Source of the DNA: Patescibacteria group bacterium
GTDB lineage: Bacteria; Patescibacteriota; Minisyncoccia; Phycocordibacterales; UBA2100
DNA: 53,046 nt
Reading direction: 5' to 3'
Assembly: GCA_038057405.1 (NCBI GenBank)
Contig: JBBUDH010000005.1
Span: 1 to 53,046 of the forward strand
Positions 12,537 through 33,618 of this stretch are shown here, in pieces. The notes under the pieces were generated by a model that saw nothing but the letters and a program-made list of their open reading frames with translations, did not search any database and was not told the origin of the DNA. Every line of letters begins with the position of its first letter. Position 1 is the stretch's first letter. The translations under genes and the position numbers were made by a program.

Positions 12537-13310
12537 TTATGCCTTAGCCGTGGGCTCAAGGCGATTCCACAATTCCTGCCATGCCACCCGCACCGCAGTT
12601 GCGATACCTTCGTCTTCAATAATGACCCCGAACGGATTTTCTTTGTCCCAGCGGAAAAATGCGACTTTGTTGCCGAAGACGTTGATTTCCGTTCCGAATT
12701 CTTCAGAATCTACGAAGCGCGTCTCGCGCATGAACGTGACATCGTTCTTCTCCGTCCACTCATGTGCGAATTTTGAGTCCCTATCAATGCACCGGGCGGC
12801 AATCTTCTTGGCAACACGTTGTGCCACATACCAATTGAGGAAACTCCACGGAAGCGTCCCCACCGCAGCGTCGAGATCTTCCCACGCGTAAATGATCTGT
12901 TTATCGCGCAACGTCACCCGGTAAATCTCTTTTAGCCCTTCAAGTCCCTGATAGAAAGAAACTTTCGGCTTGTTGCGCACATTATTCTGTATCGCGAGCA
13001 GCTGCGGTATGAGCCGCTCCATGGAAGCAACTTTTGATTTCTGTTCGTCTACCAAATGATGCGGACTGACTGCCGAATAGAGTTTGCGTTTTCCTTTCTT
13101 TATCTCCGAGAGCAGCTGTCGCTCCTTCAGAGTGTCGATGAAGTTGTAAATACTCGTACGCTTCACGCCGGATTTGCGCGAGATTTCCTGAATGTTCGCC
13201 TCGCCGAGCTCAAGTGCAGCGAGGTATACGGCGATTTCCTGCTCGGACAATCCGAGCGTTTGCATCAACTCCGCCTCGTTTTCGCTCAAAAATGACGTGG
13301 ATTTAGACAT
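12537..13310 (-). CDS. TrmB-like winged-helix transcriptional regulator, paralog 1
   Basis: N-terminal wHTH: LGLSEQEIAVYLAALELGEANIQEISRKSGVKRTSIYNFIDTLKERQLL. The C-terminal domain is shared with the genes at 15223-15993 and 32714-33469. Confidence 0.85.
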   Translation of the reverse strand: MSKSTSFLSENEAELMQTLGLSEQEIAVYLAALELGEANIQEISRKSGVKRTSIYNFIDTLKERQLLSEIKKGKRKLYSAVSPHHLVDEQKSKVASMERLIPQLLAIQNNVRNKPKVSFYQGLEGLKEIYRVTLRDKQIIYAWEDLDAAVGTLPWSFLNWYVAQRVAKKIAARCIDRDSKFAHEWTEKNDVTFMRETRFVDSEEFGTEINVFGNKVAFFRWDKENPFGVIIEDEGIATAVRVAWQELWNRLEPTAKA

Positions 13311-13336
13311 ATTTCTATATATCCGAATTGTGAAGC

Positions 13337-13366
13337 ATTATAAGCATAATATGTTCAGTCTGTCAA
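13337..13366 (-). promoter_or_regulatory. consensus sigma70-type promoter for TrmB-like gene 1
   Basis: On the minus strand, TTGACA (13366-13361), an 18-nt spacer, then TATAAT (13342-13337). The -10 box ends 26 nt upstream of the ATG. Confidence 0.6.
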
Positions 13367-13503
13367 CCAATTCTGTGCAATATGACGTATTTTCTAAACA
13401 TCTAGTCAAAATCAGGCAACATGTCCATAACTCTGGCAAGTTGATTGCCGAGTGATCGTTGACACCTGTGCCGCTCAGCAAGCGGCCAAACAAGGAGCGT
13501 TCC

Positions 13504-14265
13504 ATGAACGACTGTAAACGAATTGACGTACTGACGCAGGCGCAATGCGCGCTCCTGACCGCCAGCACTCCCCTCTTGCAAGGAATGAGTGAAGACGATC
13601 TTGAGCGGCGGATTATCCGTCACCCTGAATTGCAGAATAATCTCGCTGACGTGTTCCGAAGGCAATCGGGCTTCCCCGGGCTCCCAGGAACGGGGATAAA
13701 AATCCTTCGCGCGTTACAACTCGAGGAGGTTCCCGGTAAGAAAACTGCCGACTGCTTCACGAAAAAGTGGAGTGAAGATCGGAACCTAACTGCATTGGAG
13801 CAATATCTGCCGGAAGAGCAACGCGCTCAATCTGCCAGTTCCGTGCTCGTGTTCGAGCTCGGACCGAACAACAAATCCTCTACCATTCTGAGTGTTGCAA
13901 GTTGTGCTCTCCGTCTGGCATGGGATGTTCTCGAGTTCGGCTTTCCGTTGGAATCGGTTTCGAAGTTGCTCATCAGGCGCGGACACACGATGACCCTGCC
14001 GACACTGGAACACCTCGTCGAGCGACAGATGAGGGGTGAAGATGTCGGCTTCAAAAGGACCGGCAGCTGGGCGCCTGAAATCTGGTCGTTTGTCGAGAGC
14101 AAGAACGGCGATGTCGTGATTTGCAGACTCTACAGCGAACCGAACAGCCTCGGCAAAAAGTGGCAGATAAATATTCCGTTCGGTAGCGACTTCGAGTACT
14201 GGCGGAAGTACGACCTGTGCTATCCCGGACTGAAGTTCGTGATCCCGAATTGGACTCGCAATTAA
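13504..14265 (+). CDS. hypothetical protein (253 aa), cargo A of cassette 1
   Basis: AAGGAG lies 6 nt before the ATG at 13504. No recognisable domain. Confidence 0.65.
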   Translation: MNDCKRIDVLTQAQCALLTASTPLLQGMSEDDLERRIIRHPELQNNLADVFRRQSGFPGLPGTGIKILRALQLEEVPGKKTADCFTKKWSEDRNLTALEQYLPEEQRAQSASSVLVFELGPNNKSSTILSVASCALRLAWDVLEFGFPLESVSKLLIRRGHTMTLPTLEHLVERQMRGEDVGFKRTGSWAPEIWSFVESKNGDVVICRLYSEPNSLGKKWQINIPFGSDFEYWRKYDLCYPGLKFVIPNWTRN

Positions 14266-14278
14266 CGGAGGTTACACG

Positions 14279-14539
14279 ATGTCAAAGAACATCTGGAAGA
14301 TCTACTTCTTCGCATTGCTCATCGGAAGTTTCGGCGGGCAACTAACGAACGTAGGCATTGGCTACTACCTCAATCTGCCGCCGCAGCCAACTTACGAACA
14401 GCTGGTGCGTTGGCACGTGCGGGACCACTGCGGATTCCCCGCACACATTGACGCGTGGGCGACCTGCGCCGCCCGCGAAAGTGACAAGTTCCGCGAGCAG
14501 CAAATCCAGCTCGCGGTCGAAAACTGGCAAAACATCTGA
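14279..14539 (+). CDS. small membrane protein (86 aa), cargo B
   Basis: GGAGG lies 7 nt before the ATG. The N-terminal TM helix is IWKIYFFALLIGSFGGQL. Confidence 0.6.
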   Translation: MSKNIWKIYFFALLIGSFGGQLTNVGIGYYLNLPPQPTYEQLVRWHVRDHCGFPAHIDAWATCAARESDKFREQQIQLAVENWQNI

Positions 14540-14550
14540 AGGAGCGAAAC

Positions 14551-14832
14551 ATGCCGAAGTTCAACTTGGTCGTAGCTAACCCGGATGAGGACGTGGGTGA
14601 TGTTGCGACACGAGAATTCGACTGGCCCGCCCTGCCTCGTATCGGCGAAGAGATTAGCGTCTCTACGGTAGGTTCGGGATTACAGGGCGCAGAGGTACAA
14701 ATCTACCGAATAAAACACTGGTTCGAGAGCAGCGAAATCGAGATCTACTGCAAGATTACGGAGGGAAACGTCGAAGCGAACAGGTGGTCTTTCGAATACC
14801 TGATCACCGAAAACGGTTTCACCAGGCAGTAA
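14551..14832 (+). CDS. small hypothetical protein (93 aa), cargo C
   Basis: GAAGGAG lies 6 nt before the ATG. It is a distant paralog of the next gene. Confidence 0.6.
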   Translation: MPKFNLVVANPDEDVGDVATREFDWPALPRIGEEISVSTVGSGLQGAEVQIYRIKHWFESSEIEIYCKITEGNVEANRWSFEYLITENGFTRQ

Positions 14833-14847
14833 TCGGTCACGACGCGA

Positions 14848-14879
14848 AGCGGCGCGGAAAAGAACTTTTCCGCGCCGCT
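14848..14879 (+). terminator. perfect 15-bp stem-loop between cargo C and D (attenuator or terminator-like, no U-tract)
   Basis: AGCGGCGCGGAAAAG-AA-CTTTTCCGCGCCGCT. Confidence 0.45.
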
Positions 14880-14907
14880 AAAACTGCAACACTTCAGGAG
14901 AAGCGCC

Positions 14908-15162
14908 ATGATCACGTTCCACCTCGACATTAGTTACCACGACAGTTCACGGGACCAGATCACAAAGCAAGTGAGCTGGCCTGTAGTTCCGTCCAAAAAG
15001 CAACGCATCATGATCGGTGAATGCTTTCTGACGGTTGGCTGGGTCCTGCACGATCTCGACAGCAACGAGATCAGGGTCCACTGCAACCTTGGCCGAGCGA
15101 ACTCCAAAGAATTGTTCGAGCTGCTGCTGAAGCAGCACGGCTTTCGGGTCCGTGGCACTTAA
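14908..15162 (+). CDS. small hypothetical protein (84 aa), cargo D, paralog of cargo C
   Basis: AGGAG lies 7 nt before the ATG. It shares with cargo C the pattern F-L...WP..P...SxEI..xC...FE.L....GF. Confidence 0.6.
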   Translation: MITFHLDISYHDSSRDQITKQVSWPVVPSKKQRIMIGECFLTVGWVLHDLDSNEIRVHCNLGRANSKELFELLLKQHGFRVRGT

Positions 15163-15187
15163 GTACGTGCCGGTCGAATCTAACTCA

Positions 15188-15225
15188 AACGGCGCGGGAA
15201 ACATACCTCCCGCGCCGTTTTTTTA
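15188..15225. terminator. rho-independent terminator between convergent cargo D and TrmB-like gene 2
   Basis: AACGGCGCGGGA-AACATACC-TCCCGCGCCGTT followed by TTTTTTATTT. Confidence 0.75.
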
Positions 15226-15993
15226 TTTCGCAATCGGGGCGAGCTGGTCCCACTGTTCTTGCCAGATTATTTTGAGTGTGCGGGCGAGACCGGGGTCTTC
15301 GATGAGGACGCCGAAGGGAGAATCTTTGCGCAAACTGAAGAGCGCGACTTTATTGCCGAATATTTCGATGTCTGTCCCGAACTCCTCCGCCGCAAGCAGC
15401 CGCGACTCGCGTGAGTAGCCGATATTTTTCTCAGTAATGAATTTCCGTGCGAATGGCGTGTCGCGAGTGATGGTACGAAGCGGGATTTTCTTTGCGGAAC
15501 GCTCTTCAGGATAATTCTTAGTAAACGACTGCGGCATGATGTCGAACATGCGATCGAGGTCTTCCCACGCGTAAATCGTCTGCTTGTCATGCAGCATGAC
15601 GTTGTACATCTCTTCCATGCCCGCTATCCCCTCGTGATACGTTACTTTCGGTTTTTTCTGTCCGCTGTTGTCTATCGCGAGCAGTTGCGGAATGAGTTTC
15701 TCCACTGCCGCGATGCGCGCACGCTCTAATTGCAAAAGTTGCGAGGGATGCGCCGCCGCATACACGTGCCGCTTCCCTTTTTTGGTCTCGGAGACAAGTT
15801 GGCGTTCTTTAAGAGCCGCAAGGTGGTTGTAGGTGCTCGCGCGGGTCACACACGATTTGCGCGAAATATCTTGAATATGCGCCTGCCCGAGCTCTAGTAG
15901 CGCGAGGTAGACGGCAAGCTCGCCCTCACTCAATCCGAGGCTACGAAGCAATTCCGCGTCCTTTTCTTCCAGAAATGACACATTTATTGTCAT
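15223..15993 (-). CDS. TrmB-like winged-helix transcriptional regulator, paralog 2
   Basis: LGLSEGELAVYLALLELGQAHIQDISRKSCVTRASTYNHLAALKERQLV. It aligns along its full length with paralog 1 (IYAWEDLD, EEFGT.I..FGNKVA.F, PFGV.IED). The start is set at the ATG at 15993 (MTINVSFLEE). Confidence 0.85.
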   Translation of the reverse strand: MTINVSFLEEKDAELLRSLGLSEGELAVYLALLELGQAHIQDISRKSCVTRASTYNHLAALKERQLVSETKKGKRHVYAAAHPSQLLQLERARIAAVEKLIPQLLAIDNSGQKKPKVTYHEGIAGMEEMYNVMLHDKQTIYAWEDLDRMFDIMPQSFTKNYPEERSAKKIPLRTITRDTPFARKFITEKNIGYSRESRLLAAEEFGTDIEIFGNKVALFSLRKDSPFGVLIEDPGLARTLKIIWQEQWDQLAPIAK

Positions 15994-16018
15994 ATTTCCC
16001 TTTGCCACGATATGATTG

Positions 16019-16048
16019 ATTATAAGCATATTTATTGCATATAGTCAA
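16019..16048 (-). promoter_or_regulatory. near-consensus sigma70-type promoter for TrmB-like gene 2
   Basis: On the minus strand, TTGACT (16048-16043), an 18-nt spacer, then TATAAT (16024-16019). The geometry matches the paralog 1 promoter. Confidence 0.6.
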
Positions 16049-16157
16049 CTAGTACGACTCAAAACAACACTATTTCTAAACAATAGAGACAAATTGAGCA
16101 ACAATCCCCTCGAGTCCGGCAAGTCCCCTTGCCTGACCTGCACATTGGGAGTTGAAC

Positions 16158-16346
16158 ATGGCTACTCAGAATGCGTTGAAGAAGCCCGACGTACGTGATG
16201 CGCCCACGCCTGAAGACATTGGGCAACTCTTCTTGCGAAATAAGGGCATATCGCAGTTCGTCGTCTCGTCACCGGGAGATATCTTGGTCGAATGCAAGCT
16301 GAACGACCAGCAGGCCATTGAGCGCAAAGTCGCCGACGAGCGCTGA
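16158..16346 (+). CDS. small hypothetical protein (62 aa), cargo E of cassette 2
   Basis: GGGAG lies 6 nt before the ATG at 16158. No recognisable domain. Confidence 0.5.
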   Translation: MATQNALKKPDVRDAPTPEDIGQLFLRNKGISQFVVSSPGDILVECKLNDQQAIERKVADER

Positions 16347-16370
16347 ACGGGCAATCCGCCCGGTCACCTT

Positions 16371-16399
16371 GGCAGGAACGACTGCCAGTCGTTCCTGCC
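16371..16399 (+). terminator. 13-bp stem-loop after cargo E (attenuator or terminator-like)
   Basis: GGCAGGAACGACT-GCC-AGTCGTTCCTGCC followed by CTTGATTG. Confidence 0.4.
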
Positions 16400-16474
16400 C
16401 TTGATTGAGTTCGCGAACATCCGTTCGTTGGCTCTGAGAGATCTTGATCGTTGACATATCAAAGGAGCATGAAA

Positions 16475-17482
16475 ATGGAAAAGTTTGACCTTGATGCAGC
16501 TATCAAAGACTGCGAGCTGCACGAATGGACACCGGAGGCGATCGAGGCGTACAAACGAGCCGCAGTGGCCAAGGCGCCTCCACCAAGCACCGCATGGGAA
16601 CATCGAAAGGCTATCGTCGTCTGCGCTCGAATCGCTGTCACCGTCGGACTGATGGCCGTCTGTGCAATCATCATCGGTTTCGTCTATTCGGCATGGTTTG
16701 TGGTGCTGGTAAGTATCACAGCCTTCGTTGGAATGGGTGTCGGGACTCATTTTCTCGACAAAGCGATGAAAAGTACCGTAAAGCCCGCAATTTGGGAAAC
16801 GGAACACTTCAACTTCCACGGCGACATACCAACGGGGGCGAACATCCTCTTGCGACGGATGCGCGATTCCGGTGATTCCGATACGAATGCTGAGGTCTTT
16901 GTGCTGAGGCAGTATCGAGCATCCGGCCGTTCAGAGTGGCTCGGCTCGATTTTCTGCTTCGGAGGGCGGTATCTTGCGGTGTCCGATGAAAAACGCAACA
17001 TCGTTCTGCCGCCCGGAATTGAGCCTGACGATGAGTCGAAACACACTCTTGTCGTGGACGGCTCGATGAAACTTCACGACATGATCCGAGCGGCACGAAT
17101 GCGGCGCGATGATACCGAAATCAATGCGAAACGATTTCCGGTTGACCCGTCGCTGGCAGGTCGTTGGCTATGGAAGATATATCCATGGCAAGAGGAGATG
17201 GAATCGCCGGAAGCGGTGGCCGCAATCATGGCGAAAAACGGTTTCGTGCTGGCCCGCCATGAGCACGGCCTTGCCTTCGAGGCTCAGTTCCCGATGCGGC
17301 ACCCGAGTTGGCTATTAATCTGCGCGGGATGGCAGTCTAAGCACTCGTGGCACAACTTCGAGGAAGTGCTTTGCTTCTCGACAATGTACGGTCGGGTGAC
17401 GATGGAGCTAATAGATGATATCGGCTGGTACCGAATGGAAGACCGAGGAAATTACTTCCTCGGTGTCCGCCGGGCTACCTAA
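16475..17482 (+). CDS. membrane protein (335 aa), cargo F of cassette 2, function unknown
   Basis: AAGGAG lies 7 nt before the ATG at 16475. Two adjacent TM helices (IVVCARIAVTVGLMAVCAIIIGF and WFVVLVSITAFVGMGVG) precede a Trp/His-rich soluble domain of about 230 aa. Confidence 0.7.
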   Translation: MEKFDLDAAIKDCELHEWTPEAIEAYKRAAVAKAPPPSTAWEHRKAIVVCARIAVTVGLMAVCAIIIGFVYSAWFVVLVSITAFVGMGVGTHFLDKAMKSTVKPAIWETEHFNFHGDIPTGANILLRRMRDSGDSDTNAEVFVLRQYRASGRSEWLGSIFCFGGRYLAVSDEKRNIVLPPGIEPDDESKHTLVVDGSMKLHDMIRAARMRRDDTEINAKRFPVDPSLAGRWLWKIYPWQEEMESPEAVAAIMAKNGFVLARHEHGLAFEAQFPMRHPSWLLICAGWQSKHSWHNFEEVLCFSTMYGRVTMELIDDIGWYRMEDRGNYFLGVRRAT

Positions 17483-17493
17483 TGGCTTAACGC

Positions 17494-17537
17494 AAAGCGG
17501 CGCGGGATTCTATCCCGCGCCGCTTATTCTTTTCCTT
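17494..17537. terminator. rho-independent terminator between cargo F and convergent rplK
   Basis: AAAGCGGCGCGGGA-TTCTA-TCCCGCGCCGCTT followed by ATTCTTTTCCTTTATT. Confidence 0.75.
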
Positions 17538-17547
17538 TATTCTGGAA

Positions 17548-18937: not shown

Positions 18938-19020
18938 TGCATTGCGAGGGTGTCTCGCAGGCCGACGGGCCGAGAGGCAGCGCTGCCGCAGCAGCGGCAG
19001 ACAGCGACCCTCGCAGTGCA
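18938..19020. ncRNA. structured intergenic element, copy A (candidate ncRNA or structured repeat)
   Basis: A 14-bp closing stem (18938-18951 pairs with 19007-19020) encloses two hairpins: GGCC-GACG-GGCC (18960-18971) and CTGCCGC-AGCA-GCGGCAG (18983-19000). It is homologous to copy B at 35601-35696, with compensatory changes. Confidence 0.5.
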
Positions 19021-33602: not shown

Positions 33603-33618
33603 ACCGGCATCCGCCGGT
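33603..33618. promoter_or_regulatory. perfect palindrome ACCGGC-N4-GCCGGT in the leader of cassette 3 cargo (candidate operator or leader hairpin)
   Basis: It lies 28 nt upstream of the cargo ATG at 33647. An analogous palindrome, GGCAAG-N4-CTTGCC (16118-16133), lies 24 nt upstream of the cassette 2 cargo ATG. Confidence 0.3.

Follow-up and report, generated by a model that had tools for sequence, protein, structure and literature searches.

Two homologous control regions beside paralogous TrmB/TrmBL2-like regulator genes of a patescibacterium, interpreted as a compact two-way module

Divergent regions in which an autoregulated regulator gene lies back to back with its target are well known in bacteria from the tetR/tetA, MarR-type and LysR-type loci, and stem-loops that stabilise an mRNA at its 5' end are known from the ompA leader of Escherichia coli and from the aprE and ermC leaders of Bacillus subtilis. 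In the Thermococcales, the regulators TrmB, TrmBL1 and TrmBL2 have a palindromic operator, the TGM, with the sequence TATCAC-N5-GTGATA (PMC4706686, PMC4158304), and whether TrmBL1 represses or activates depends on where its site stands with respect to the promoter, one divergent region being repressed in one direction and activated in the other (PMC4706686). Here we describe two control regions in a 53,046-nt contig of a Patescibacteria group bacterium (contig C5 of the assembly; "the window" hereafter means this whole stretch of DNA). Each of them, 193 nt long in region 1 and 164 nt in region 2, separates a TrmB-like regulator gene from a plus-strand operon of variable content, its cargo, which the regulator gene faces. 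Our preferred interpretation, held with moderate confidence, is a compact two-way module, copied along with its TrmB/TrmBL2-like regulator gene, which combines a strong regulator promoter, a weak cargo promoter, a 5' stem-loop on the cargo message and an operator between the two −35 hexamers.

The regulators resemble the Thermococcales family in their N-terminal PF01978 winged helix, which is followed by a long helix, and in a TrmBL2-like fold over the whole length, with a PLD-like domain at the C-terminus as well. An AlphaFold model of R1 (mean pLDDT 79.7) gave a full-length Foldseek match to TrmBL2 (5BQT, 5BPD; E 1e-14, ~270 columns) and a weaker one to TrmB (3QPH; E 4.5e-10), with a TM-score of only ~0.40 because the domain arrangement differs. 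Scores for PF01978 of 56.4, 51.6 and 34.2 bits, above the Pfam cut-off of 25.6, place the proteins among the TrmB winged-helix regulators, and the NCBIfam equivalog models for TrmB and TrmBL1 were matched at 42 and 36 bits, far below their cut-offs of 600 and 650. Unlike the Thermococcales, the host is a bacterium of the Candidate Phyla Radiation (CPR) with sigma70 promoters instead of archaeal BRE/TATA elements; moreover, a search of both regions for a TGM-type palindrome found no such motif, and a Pfam scan of the regulators gave no match past residue 91 and no sugar-binding domain. The DNA binding of TrmBL2 itself is little sequence-specific, whereas the comparisons below suggest a specific half-site that tracks the recognition helix. 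With the tetR/tetA-, MarR- and LysR-type loci the regions would share back-to-back promoters within ~170-190 bp, a regulator facing the controlled operon and a candidate operator between or over the −35 hexamers. They differ from those loci in regulator family, in pairing a very strong regulator promoter with a proposed weak cargo promoter, and in that the same module would drive unrelated cargo in related strains. As in the ompA, aprE and ermC leaders, the hairpin is followed by no U-tract, leaves the ribosome binding site free and is conserved in structure and not in sequence; it would also begin 0-4 nt from the 5' end, which is here a prediction from sequence.

The genome under study (672 kb, 77% complete, 55.6% G+C) carries this arrangement as a slot between argS and rplK, duplicated in tandem. 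One homologue is assigned by its source to Candidatus Kaiserbacteria, in keeping with a CPR/Patescibacteria origin. The regulator genes and their proposed promoters are as follows.

12537-13310, minus strand: regulator gene R1, 257 amino acids, TrmB/TrmBL2-like winged-helix protein (Pfam PF01978, E 2.7e-15)
15223-15993, minus strand: regulator gene R2, 256 amino acids, paralogue of R1 (PF01978, E 8.5e-14)
13337-13366, minus strand: R1 promoter, −35 TTGACA at 13366-13361, 18-nt spacer, −10 TATAAT at 13342-13337, predicted start near 13330
16019-16048, minus strand: R2 promoter, TTGACT-N18-TATAAT, predicted start near 16012; it aligns to the foreign profile described below

An earlier note on this DNA had called the two control regions paralogous, and this is borne out by the 52% identity of the regulators (ungapped, E 2e-103) and by a profile search. 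Pairwise local alignment of regions 1 and 2 was borderline (z = 4.7 against dinucleotide shuffles, a score that other low-GC windows of the genome equal), and as these statistics were too weak they were replaced by an nhmmer profile. Related loci were gathered, 4 of them from genomes of the same genus, 20 from metagenome contigs and 9, of R2 type, via protein look-ups. The input to the profile was 18 orthologous control regions, all from metagenomes or genomes other than this one, with both window regions excluded. Searched against the whole genome, this foreign profile matched in only two places, 13311-13442 (E 1.2e-29) and 16011-16125 (E 9.2e-12). As these matches are exactly regions 1 and 2, the two are truly homologous, and sequence comparison identifies them as duplicated copies of one conserved two-way control region. 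That two tandem duplicates have a control region in common is in itself expected, and features of this sort are ordinary. No homology to regions 1 and 2 was detected in the control region of the third TrmB-like gene or in that of the fourth, on contig C51.

The related loci align from the regulator ATG over ~110 nt, nearly gap-free, with pairwise identities of 0.65-0.85 in conserved blocks, 0.32-0.40 in spacers and 0.51 at third codon positions of the adjacent regulator gene. The motifs on which the earlier note had relied are indeed found at 13337-13348 and 16019-16030 (ATTATAAGCATA), 13362-13366 and 16044-16048 (GTCAA), and 13391-13400 and 16073-16082 (TTTCTAAACA). The orthologous loci keep them in register: 20 foreign loci and 9 further R2-type loci do so, and ~30 related loci have the same layout, counts that overstate independence because the loci are kin, many of them from one metagenome. 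Between the two window regions the offset is constant at 2682 from ~13329 to 13422 and becomes 2683 past a 1-nt indel (AACAAT versus AACAT) inside the proposed cargo −10 hexamer. The spacing that had been described as conserved from the regulator ATG holds for this offset, but the ATG itself is 27 nt away in region 1 and one nucleotide closer, at 26 nt, in region 2. The genome contains five copies of TTTCTAAACA, three of which lie outside regions 1 and 2, within or at the end of coding sequence. A wider regulon was sought with TTTCTAAACA and with TYCTAAACA-N13-17-GCAAYAT, and no other meaningful occurrence was found in this genome or in 115 others of the genus.

Read on the minus strand, the hexamers upstream of R1 match the sigma70 consensus at 12/12 positions and those upstream of R2 at 11/12, 20-27 nt upstream of the ATG. 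These hexamers, whose 18-nt spacer falls within the 16-18 nt usual for sigma70 promoters, are kept in register across the ~30 related loci, with a mean position weight matrix score of 11.2 bits (21 loci) and a block identity of 0.84-0.85, so that the near-perfect sigma70 promoters proposed for the regulators stand. With regard to the 12-mer ATTATAAGCATA that the two regions share, TGCT(T)ATA(A/C)T turns up as an extended −10-like signature at other promoter-like sites (C4:808, C27:1714, C53:5989 and C64:112, and on C1, C36, C44 and C67), and TGCTTATAAT, a part of the R1 promoter, is likewise a generic signature of the genome. The 12-mer thus appears to be largely a generic strong-promoter signature, and its identity says little about special regulation because the signature is generic in this genome.

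On the opposite strand, a second and much weaker promoter is proposed for the cargo.

13395-13422, plus strand: weak cargo 1 promoter, −35-like TAAACA at 13395-13400 (inside TTTCTAAACA), 16-nt spacer, −10-like CAACAT at 13417-13422, predicted start A13429
16077-16105, plus strand: weak cargo 2 promoter, TAAACA at 16077-16082, 17-nt spacer, AACAAT at 16100-16105, predicted start G16112

Downstream of the regulator's own promoter, no other sigma70-like site on the plus strand is as well conserved as the arrangement TAAACA-N16-CAACAT. Of 31 loci, 29 have T..ACA followed by a second hexamer after a spacer of 16-17 nt (18 in one locus), and the cargo 2-type arrangement recurs in 5 further R2-type loci. 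The second hexamer takes the forms CAACAT, CAATAT, TAACAT, CAGTAT, AACAAT, AATACT and CATACT, keeping A2 and T6 in 29/29 cases, and the seventh nucleotide downstream of it is a purine in 27/29. Such variation, with A2 and T6 fixed and the rest free, is what would be expected of a −10 element. The TTTCTAAACA and GCAACAT blocks are identical in R1-type and R2-type loci despite differing recognition helices, and they therefore fit elements read by RNA polymerase. The TTTCTAAACA block had been noted as having no obvious promoter role; this has to be revised, as the block probably has one, with its TAAACA part, the best conserved −35-like hexamer, serving the plus-strand cargo promoter together with a −10 in the GCAAC(A)AT block.

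Several observations weigh against this promoter. Its mean score is only 0.44 bits and its −35 is without the usual TTG; picking the best of three spacers favours the A2/T6 count; and plus-strand −10-like hexamers in the AT-rich palindromic stretch 13336-13350 score higher than CAACAT, so that the cargo start could lie ~70-85 nt further upstream. Alternatively, the TrmB-like regulator or some other protein might bind at TTTCTAAACA and (G)GCAACAT, and the cargo would be transcribed from elsewhere, e.g. from the plus-strand TATTAT or CATAAT at 13336-13350, with a correspondingly longer leader. The mean scores of the −10-like hexamers are 2.85 bits at 13336 and 2.18 bits at 13345, against 1.36 for CAACAT; the conservation of TTTCTAAACA is stricter than a poor −35 needs, and AA.CAT occurs three times (13343, 13396, 13417) on roughly the same helix face. 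We nevertheless consider such binding sites unlikely, given blocks that stay unchanged between regulators with different recognition helices, a hexamer that varies in the −10-like manner described above, and upstream hexamers that mirror the regulator's own AT-rich −10. Moreover, 13351-13432 has neither conserved RNA structure (−0.5 kcal/mol, no covariation) nor a coding signal, so that no purpose can be seen for a long conserved leader. The poor sigma70 match could also mean that the cargo promoter is read by the extracytoplasmic function (ECF)-type sigma factor of this genome, which is encoded on contig C8 and has regions 2 and 4, with the AAC of TAAACA as −35 core and part of the GCAAC block as −10. 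An invariant AAC and a 16-17-nt spacer do resemble the layout of ECF promoters, but no −10 of CGT or GTC type is present, the conserved A2 and T6 are sigma70 −10 positions and nothing links the ECF factor to the locus, which makes this explanation very improbable. The only sigma factors found in the assembly were this ECF-type one, whose gene (G000:C8:2022-2654) has masked or unknown bases near its 5' end, and the primary one on contig C61.

Downstream of the proposed cargo starts lie the palindromes that the earlier note had offered either as operators of dimeric winged-helix regulators or as leader RNA hairpins. GGCAAG-N4-CTTGCC of region 2 was found at 16118-16133, as given there; the GGCAA-N5-TTGCC of region 1 is present too, at 13435-13449 rather than 13436-13450. 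Extended by further pairs, they form the following elements.

13430-13453, plus strand: hairpin 1, ACUC.GGCAA-GUUGA-UUGCCGAGU, +2 to +25 of the predicted cargo 1 mRNA
16114-16137, plus strand: hairpin 2, GUC.GGCAAG-UCCC-CUUGCC.GAC, +3 to +26 of the predicted cargo 2 mRNA

A stem-loop of −8.5 kcal/mol or lower was found in 24/29 loci, starting at most 6 nt from the conserved purine and mostly 0-4 nt from the predicted start, with loops of 4 to 13 nt and a mean folding z-score of −2.6 (21 loci). In an alignment of 16 distinct sequences, 86% of the cells were paired and 7 of 9 pairs had changes on both sides; none of 500 shuffles scored as high, and controls slid along the alignment gave 23-49%. 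Compensatory arm pairs include CTGGCAAG/CTTGCCGG, CCGACAGG/CTTGTCGG, CCAACG/CGTTGG and CGGCAAC/GTTGCCG. There is no U-tract downstream of the stem, and the Shine-Dalgarno sequence lies outside the hairpin. Because the loops vary from 4 to 13 nt and the arms covary, the palindromes are most likely 5'-terminal mRNA stem-loops rather than operators, and of the two options left by the earlier note the hairpin is the better fit.

Some measurements do not favour an RNA hairpin. The folding energy shows no strand asymmetry (11/20 loci, p = 0.76), so the fold by itself does not decide between RNA and DNA; the complete leaders, scored as single sequences, have modest z-scores (−1.9 and −0.08); and two loci, L061 and L062, have no real hairpin. 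An energy unbiased by strand would also suit GGCAA-N5-TTGCC and GGCAAG-N4-CTTGCC as DNA operators bound by dimeric winged-helix regulators, as would the fairly well conserved sequence of the left arm CTGGCAAG and a site just downstream of the proposed start, the classic position of a roadblock. An operator of this kind is nonetheless very unlikely: its half-sites would be anywhere from 4 to 13 nt apart, its arms are swapped for unrelated complementary ones (CCAACG/CGTTGG, CCGACAGG/CTTGTCGG) where the recognition helix is identical, and the same arms occur in R1-type and R2-type loci whose helices differ. It is likewise very doubtful that the hairpin, beyond any role as an mRNA 5' structure, marks a junction, recombination or insertion site for cargo exchange between strains, loosely like an integron attC hairpin, within a portable "expression slot" made of regulator, two-way promoter and hairpin and fixed at a single chromosomal hotspot, argS-rplK. 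No relation was found between the hairpin and the palindromic mobile repeat at 18938-19020. In one related locus, L050 (Ga0209542_10171748), the hairpin arms are wholly replaced by CCAACG/CGTTGG; the GCAAC block is altered there too, and the regulator frame is broken at ~codons 43-50 by a frameshift, with a stop after NIQE.

Other readings of the control regions were tried and rejected. TGGCAAG-N4-TTGCC of region 1 recalls a sigma54 promoter, since GG and GC stand at the canonical 12-nt distance (GG-N10-GC) both in region 1 and in L002 (TGGCAAGTTGATTGCC, TGGCAAGCATTTTGCT); this spacing differs in region 2 and in most orthologues, and the Sigma54_DBD domain (PF04552) was found in 0/61 genomes (this one and 60 others of the genus, of which 41 have a completeness of 90% or more; controls positive). 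With no rpoN found in these 61 genomes the spacing must be regarded as coincidental, and the sigma54 reading has practically no chance of being right. A leader peptide from the ATG at 13382 (MTYFLNI..., spanning ATGAC and the TTTCTAAACA block), controlling the cargo via the hairpin, was suggested by an ATG or GTG at this place in 18/22 loci, by conceptual peptides that have MT.FLNI..KSGN in common, and by open reading frames (ORFs) that end in an ATGA overlapping the cargo start (L055) or run in frame into the cargo (L042, L047, L051). No coding signal accompanies them: column entropy by codon position is 0.67, 0.68 and 0.79, and the synonymous fraction is alike in the three frames (32/106, 30/99, 24/89). 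Moreover, the ORF stops after anything from 7 to >50 codons, and in region 1 after 7, yet the blocks downstream are kept; region 2, L054, L002 and L052 have no start codon; and neither a Shine-Dalgarno sequence nor a conserved promoter lies upstream. We regard this peptide as extremely improbable. A structured leader RNA or riboswitch across 13351-13432 was likewise discarded, as RNAalifold gave no consensus structure and Rfam no match: in the window only tRNAs reach the gathering score, and nothing in either control region was found at E <= 1. One weak Rfam match at 16151-16215, over the start and coding sequence of cargo 2, scored 16.4 bits against a cut-off of 38.

A better operator candidate than the palindromes lies between the two promoters.

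13382-13386, no strand assigned: ATGAC, candidate half-site of the R1 operator, of the form [AG]TGAC; a partner GTCA at 13362-13365 overlaps the R1 −35
16064-16068, no strand assigned: ACAAC, counterpart in region 2, in the same register (offset 2682), which differs in step with the R2 recognition helix VTRASTYNHLAAL

Loci whose regulator has the helix VKRTSIYNFID.LK carry [AG]TGAC in 17/17 cases. Five further loci with a KRTS helix have CTGAC, TTGAC, TTGGC and TTGAC in four and ACGAC in the fifth; the helix TKRASTYN goes with ACGAC in 4/4 loci, and VTRASTYN with ACAAC or ACATC in 2/2, region 2 among them. The inverted repeat GTCA-N17-TGAC is invariant and is the sole "pair" that RNAalifold finds there. 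On these comparisons [AG]TGAC at 13382-13386 is put forward as the candidate operator. The link between helix and half-site has to be taken as a lead and not as proof, because the related loci represent only about two independent evolutionary events.

The comparisons above establish that the regions are homologous, that their blocks and spacing are conserved and that the hairpin arms covary. Taken together, these elements suggest the following mechanism, in which we predict where transcription starts, what the hairpin does, where the operator lies and in which sense the regulator acts. Leftwards, the near-consensus sigma70 promoter TTGACA-N18-TATAAT would drive the regulator. Rightwards, the weak sigma70-type promoter, with TAAACA of TTTCTAAACA as −35 and CAACAT or AACAAT of the GCAAC(A)AT block as −10, would drive the variable cargo, whose transcription is expected to begin ~7 nt downstream of the −10, at the conserved purine near 13429 and 16112. 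The cargo message would then open almost directly with the stem-loop, which most likely protects or marks the mRNA 5' end. The regulator probably binds within the ~28 bp that separate the two −35 hexamers, at or near [AG]TGAC (13382-13386) and possibly together with the inverted GTCA in its own −35. A regulator bound there would mask the −35 of its own gene and be placed at about −45 with respect to the cargo promoter; it could thereby repress its own transcription and exert control over the weak cargo promoter, perhaps by activation.

Experimental knowledge of transcription control in CPR/Patescibacteria is almost nil, and the locus offers a base-level, comparatively validated map of a control module in an uncultured tiny bacterium. 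Its elements fall into generic polymerase signals (TGCT(T)ATAAT, TTGACA and the weak T..ACA/nA...T promoter), an apparently regulator-specific element ([AG]TGAC, which tracks the recognition helix) and an element that would act as structure (the hairpin). Such a map turns an "orphan TrmB-like regulator beside orphan genes" into testable predictions, namely four transcription starts, one footprint and one stem swap, and it is a source of candidate promoter parts for studies of these uncultured bacteria.

Behind the module the cargo varies. Among the related loci (window 12537-17540; L036-L065) the module is conserved and is followed by the 253-aa (amino acid) orphan of cassette 1 and then small proteins, by small proteins alone, by a class I methyltransferase, by a radical SAM enzyme or a haem-oxygenase-like protein together with that methyltransferase, or by further orphan proteins. 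The slot is often found next to rplK and/or argS, and the metagenome Ga0209542 holds at least 13 variants of it. The 65-nt leader at 13408-13473 is 100% identical to that of L031 (G070:C59), whose regulator is only 80% identical, and L037, with a regulator 97% identical, has a different leader; these mismatches suggest that the regulator side and the cargo side have undergone mosaic exchange with each other. The remaining features of the two cargo leaders are listed here.

13470-13486, plus strand: second leader hairpin, GCCGC-N7-GCGGC, in the cargo 1-type leader only; kept in L031, L037 and L038
13492-13506, plus strand: Shine-Dalgarno sequence AAGGAG (13492-13497) and ATG (13504-13506) of cargo 1, which occupies 13504-14265 and encodes 253 aa of no family
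16147-16160, plus strand: Shine-Dalgarno sequence GGGAG (16147-16151) and ATG (16158-16160) of cargo 2, a 62-aa ORF and then a 343-aa ORF, of no family

In L037 the second leader hairpin has the compensatory variant GCCAC/GTGGC. Within cargo 2, the 62-aa ORF (16158-16346) is separated by a 104-nt gap from the 343-aa ORF (16451-17482), which has a predicted membrane segment and TTG as its earliest start codon.

The palindrome of cassette 3, ACCGGC-N4-GCCGGT, exists at 33603-33618, but the equivalent position once ascribed to it is unsupported: the profile gave no match at this place, and the only 80% orthologue compared (L026) lacks the palindrome and has just the first 25 nt beside the regulator and a TGTCGTATTT motif in common with cassette 3. 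It lies 9-10 nt past a CAGTAT hexamer and looks analogous to hairpins 1 and 2. Finally, the fourth TrmB-like paralogue (G000:C51, upstream of 17938) and its orthologues (L024, L013) have a different conserved inverted repeat, TGTCA-N7/8-TGACA, beside the regulator start. The control regions of the fourth-paralogue type contain further GTCAA/TTGAC repeats, and GTCAA-type repeats also occur in the 42-45% homologues L003, L022 and L004.

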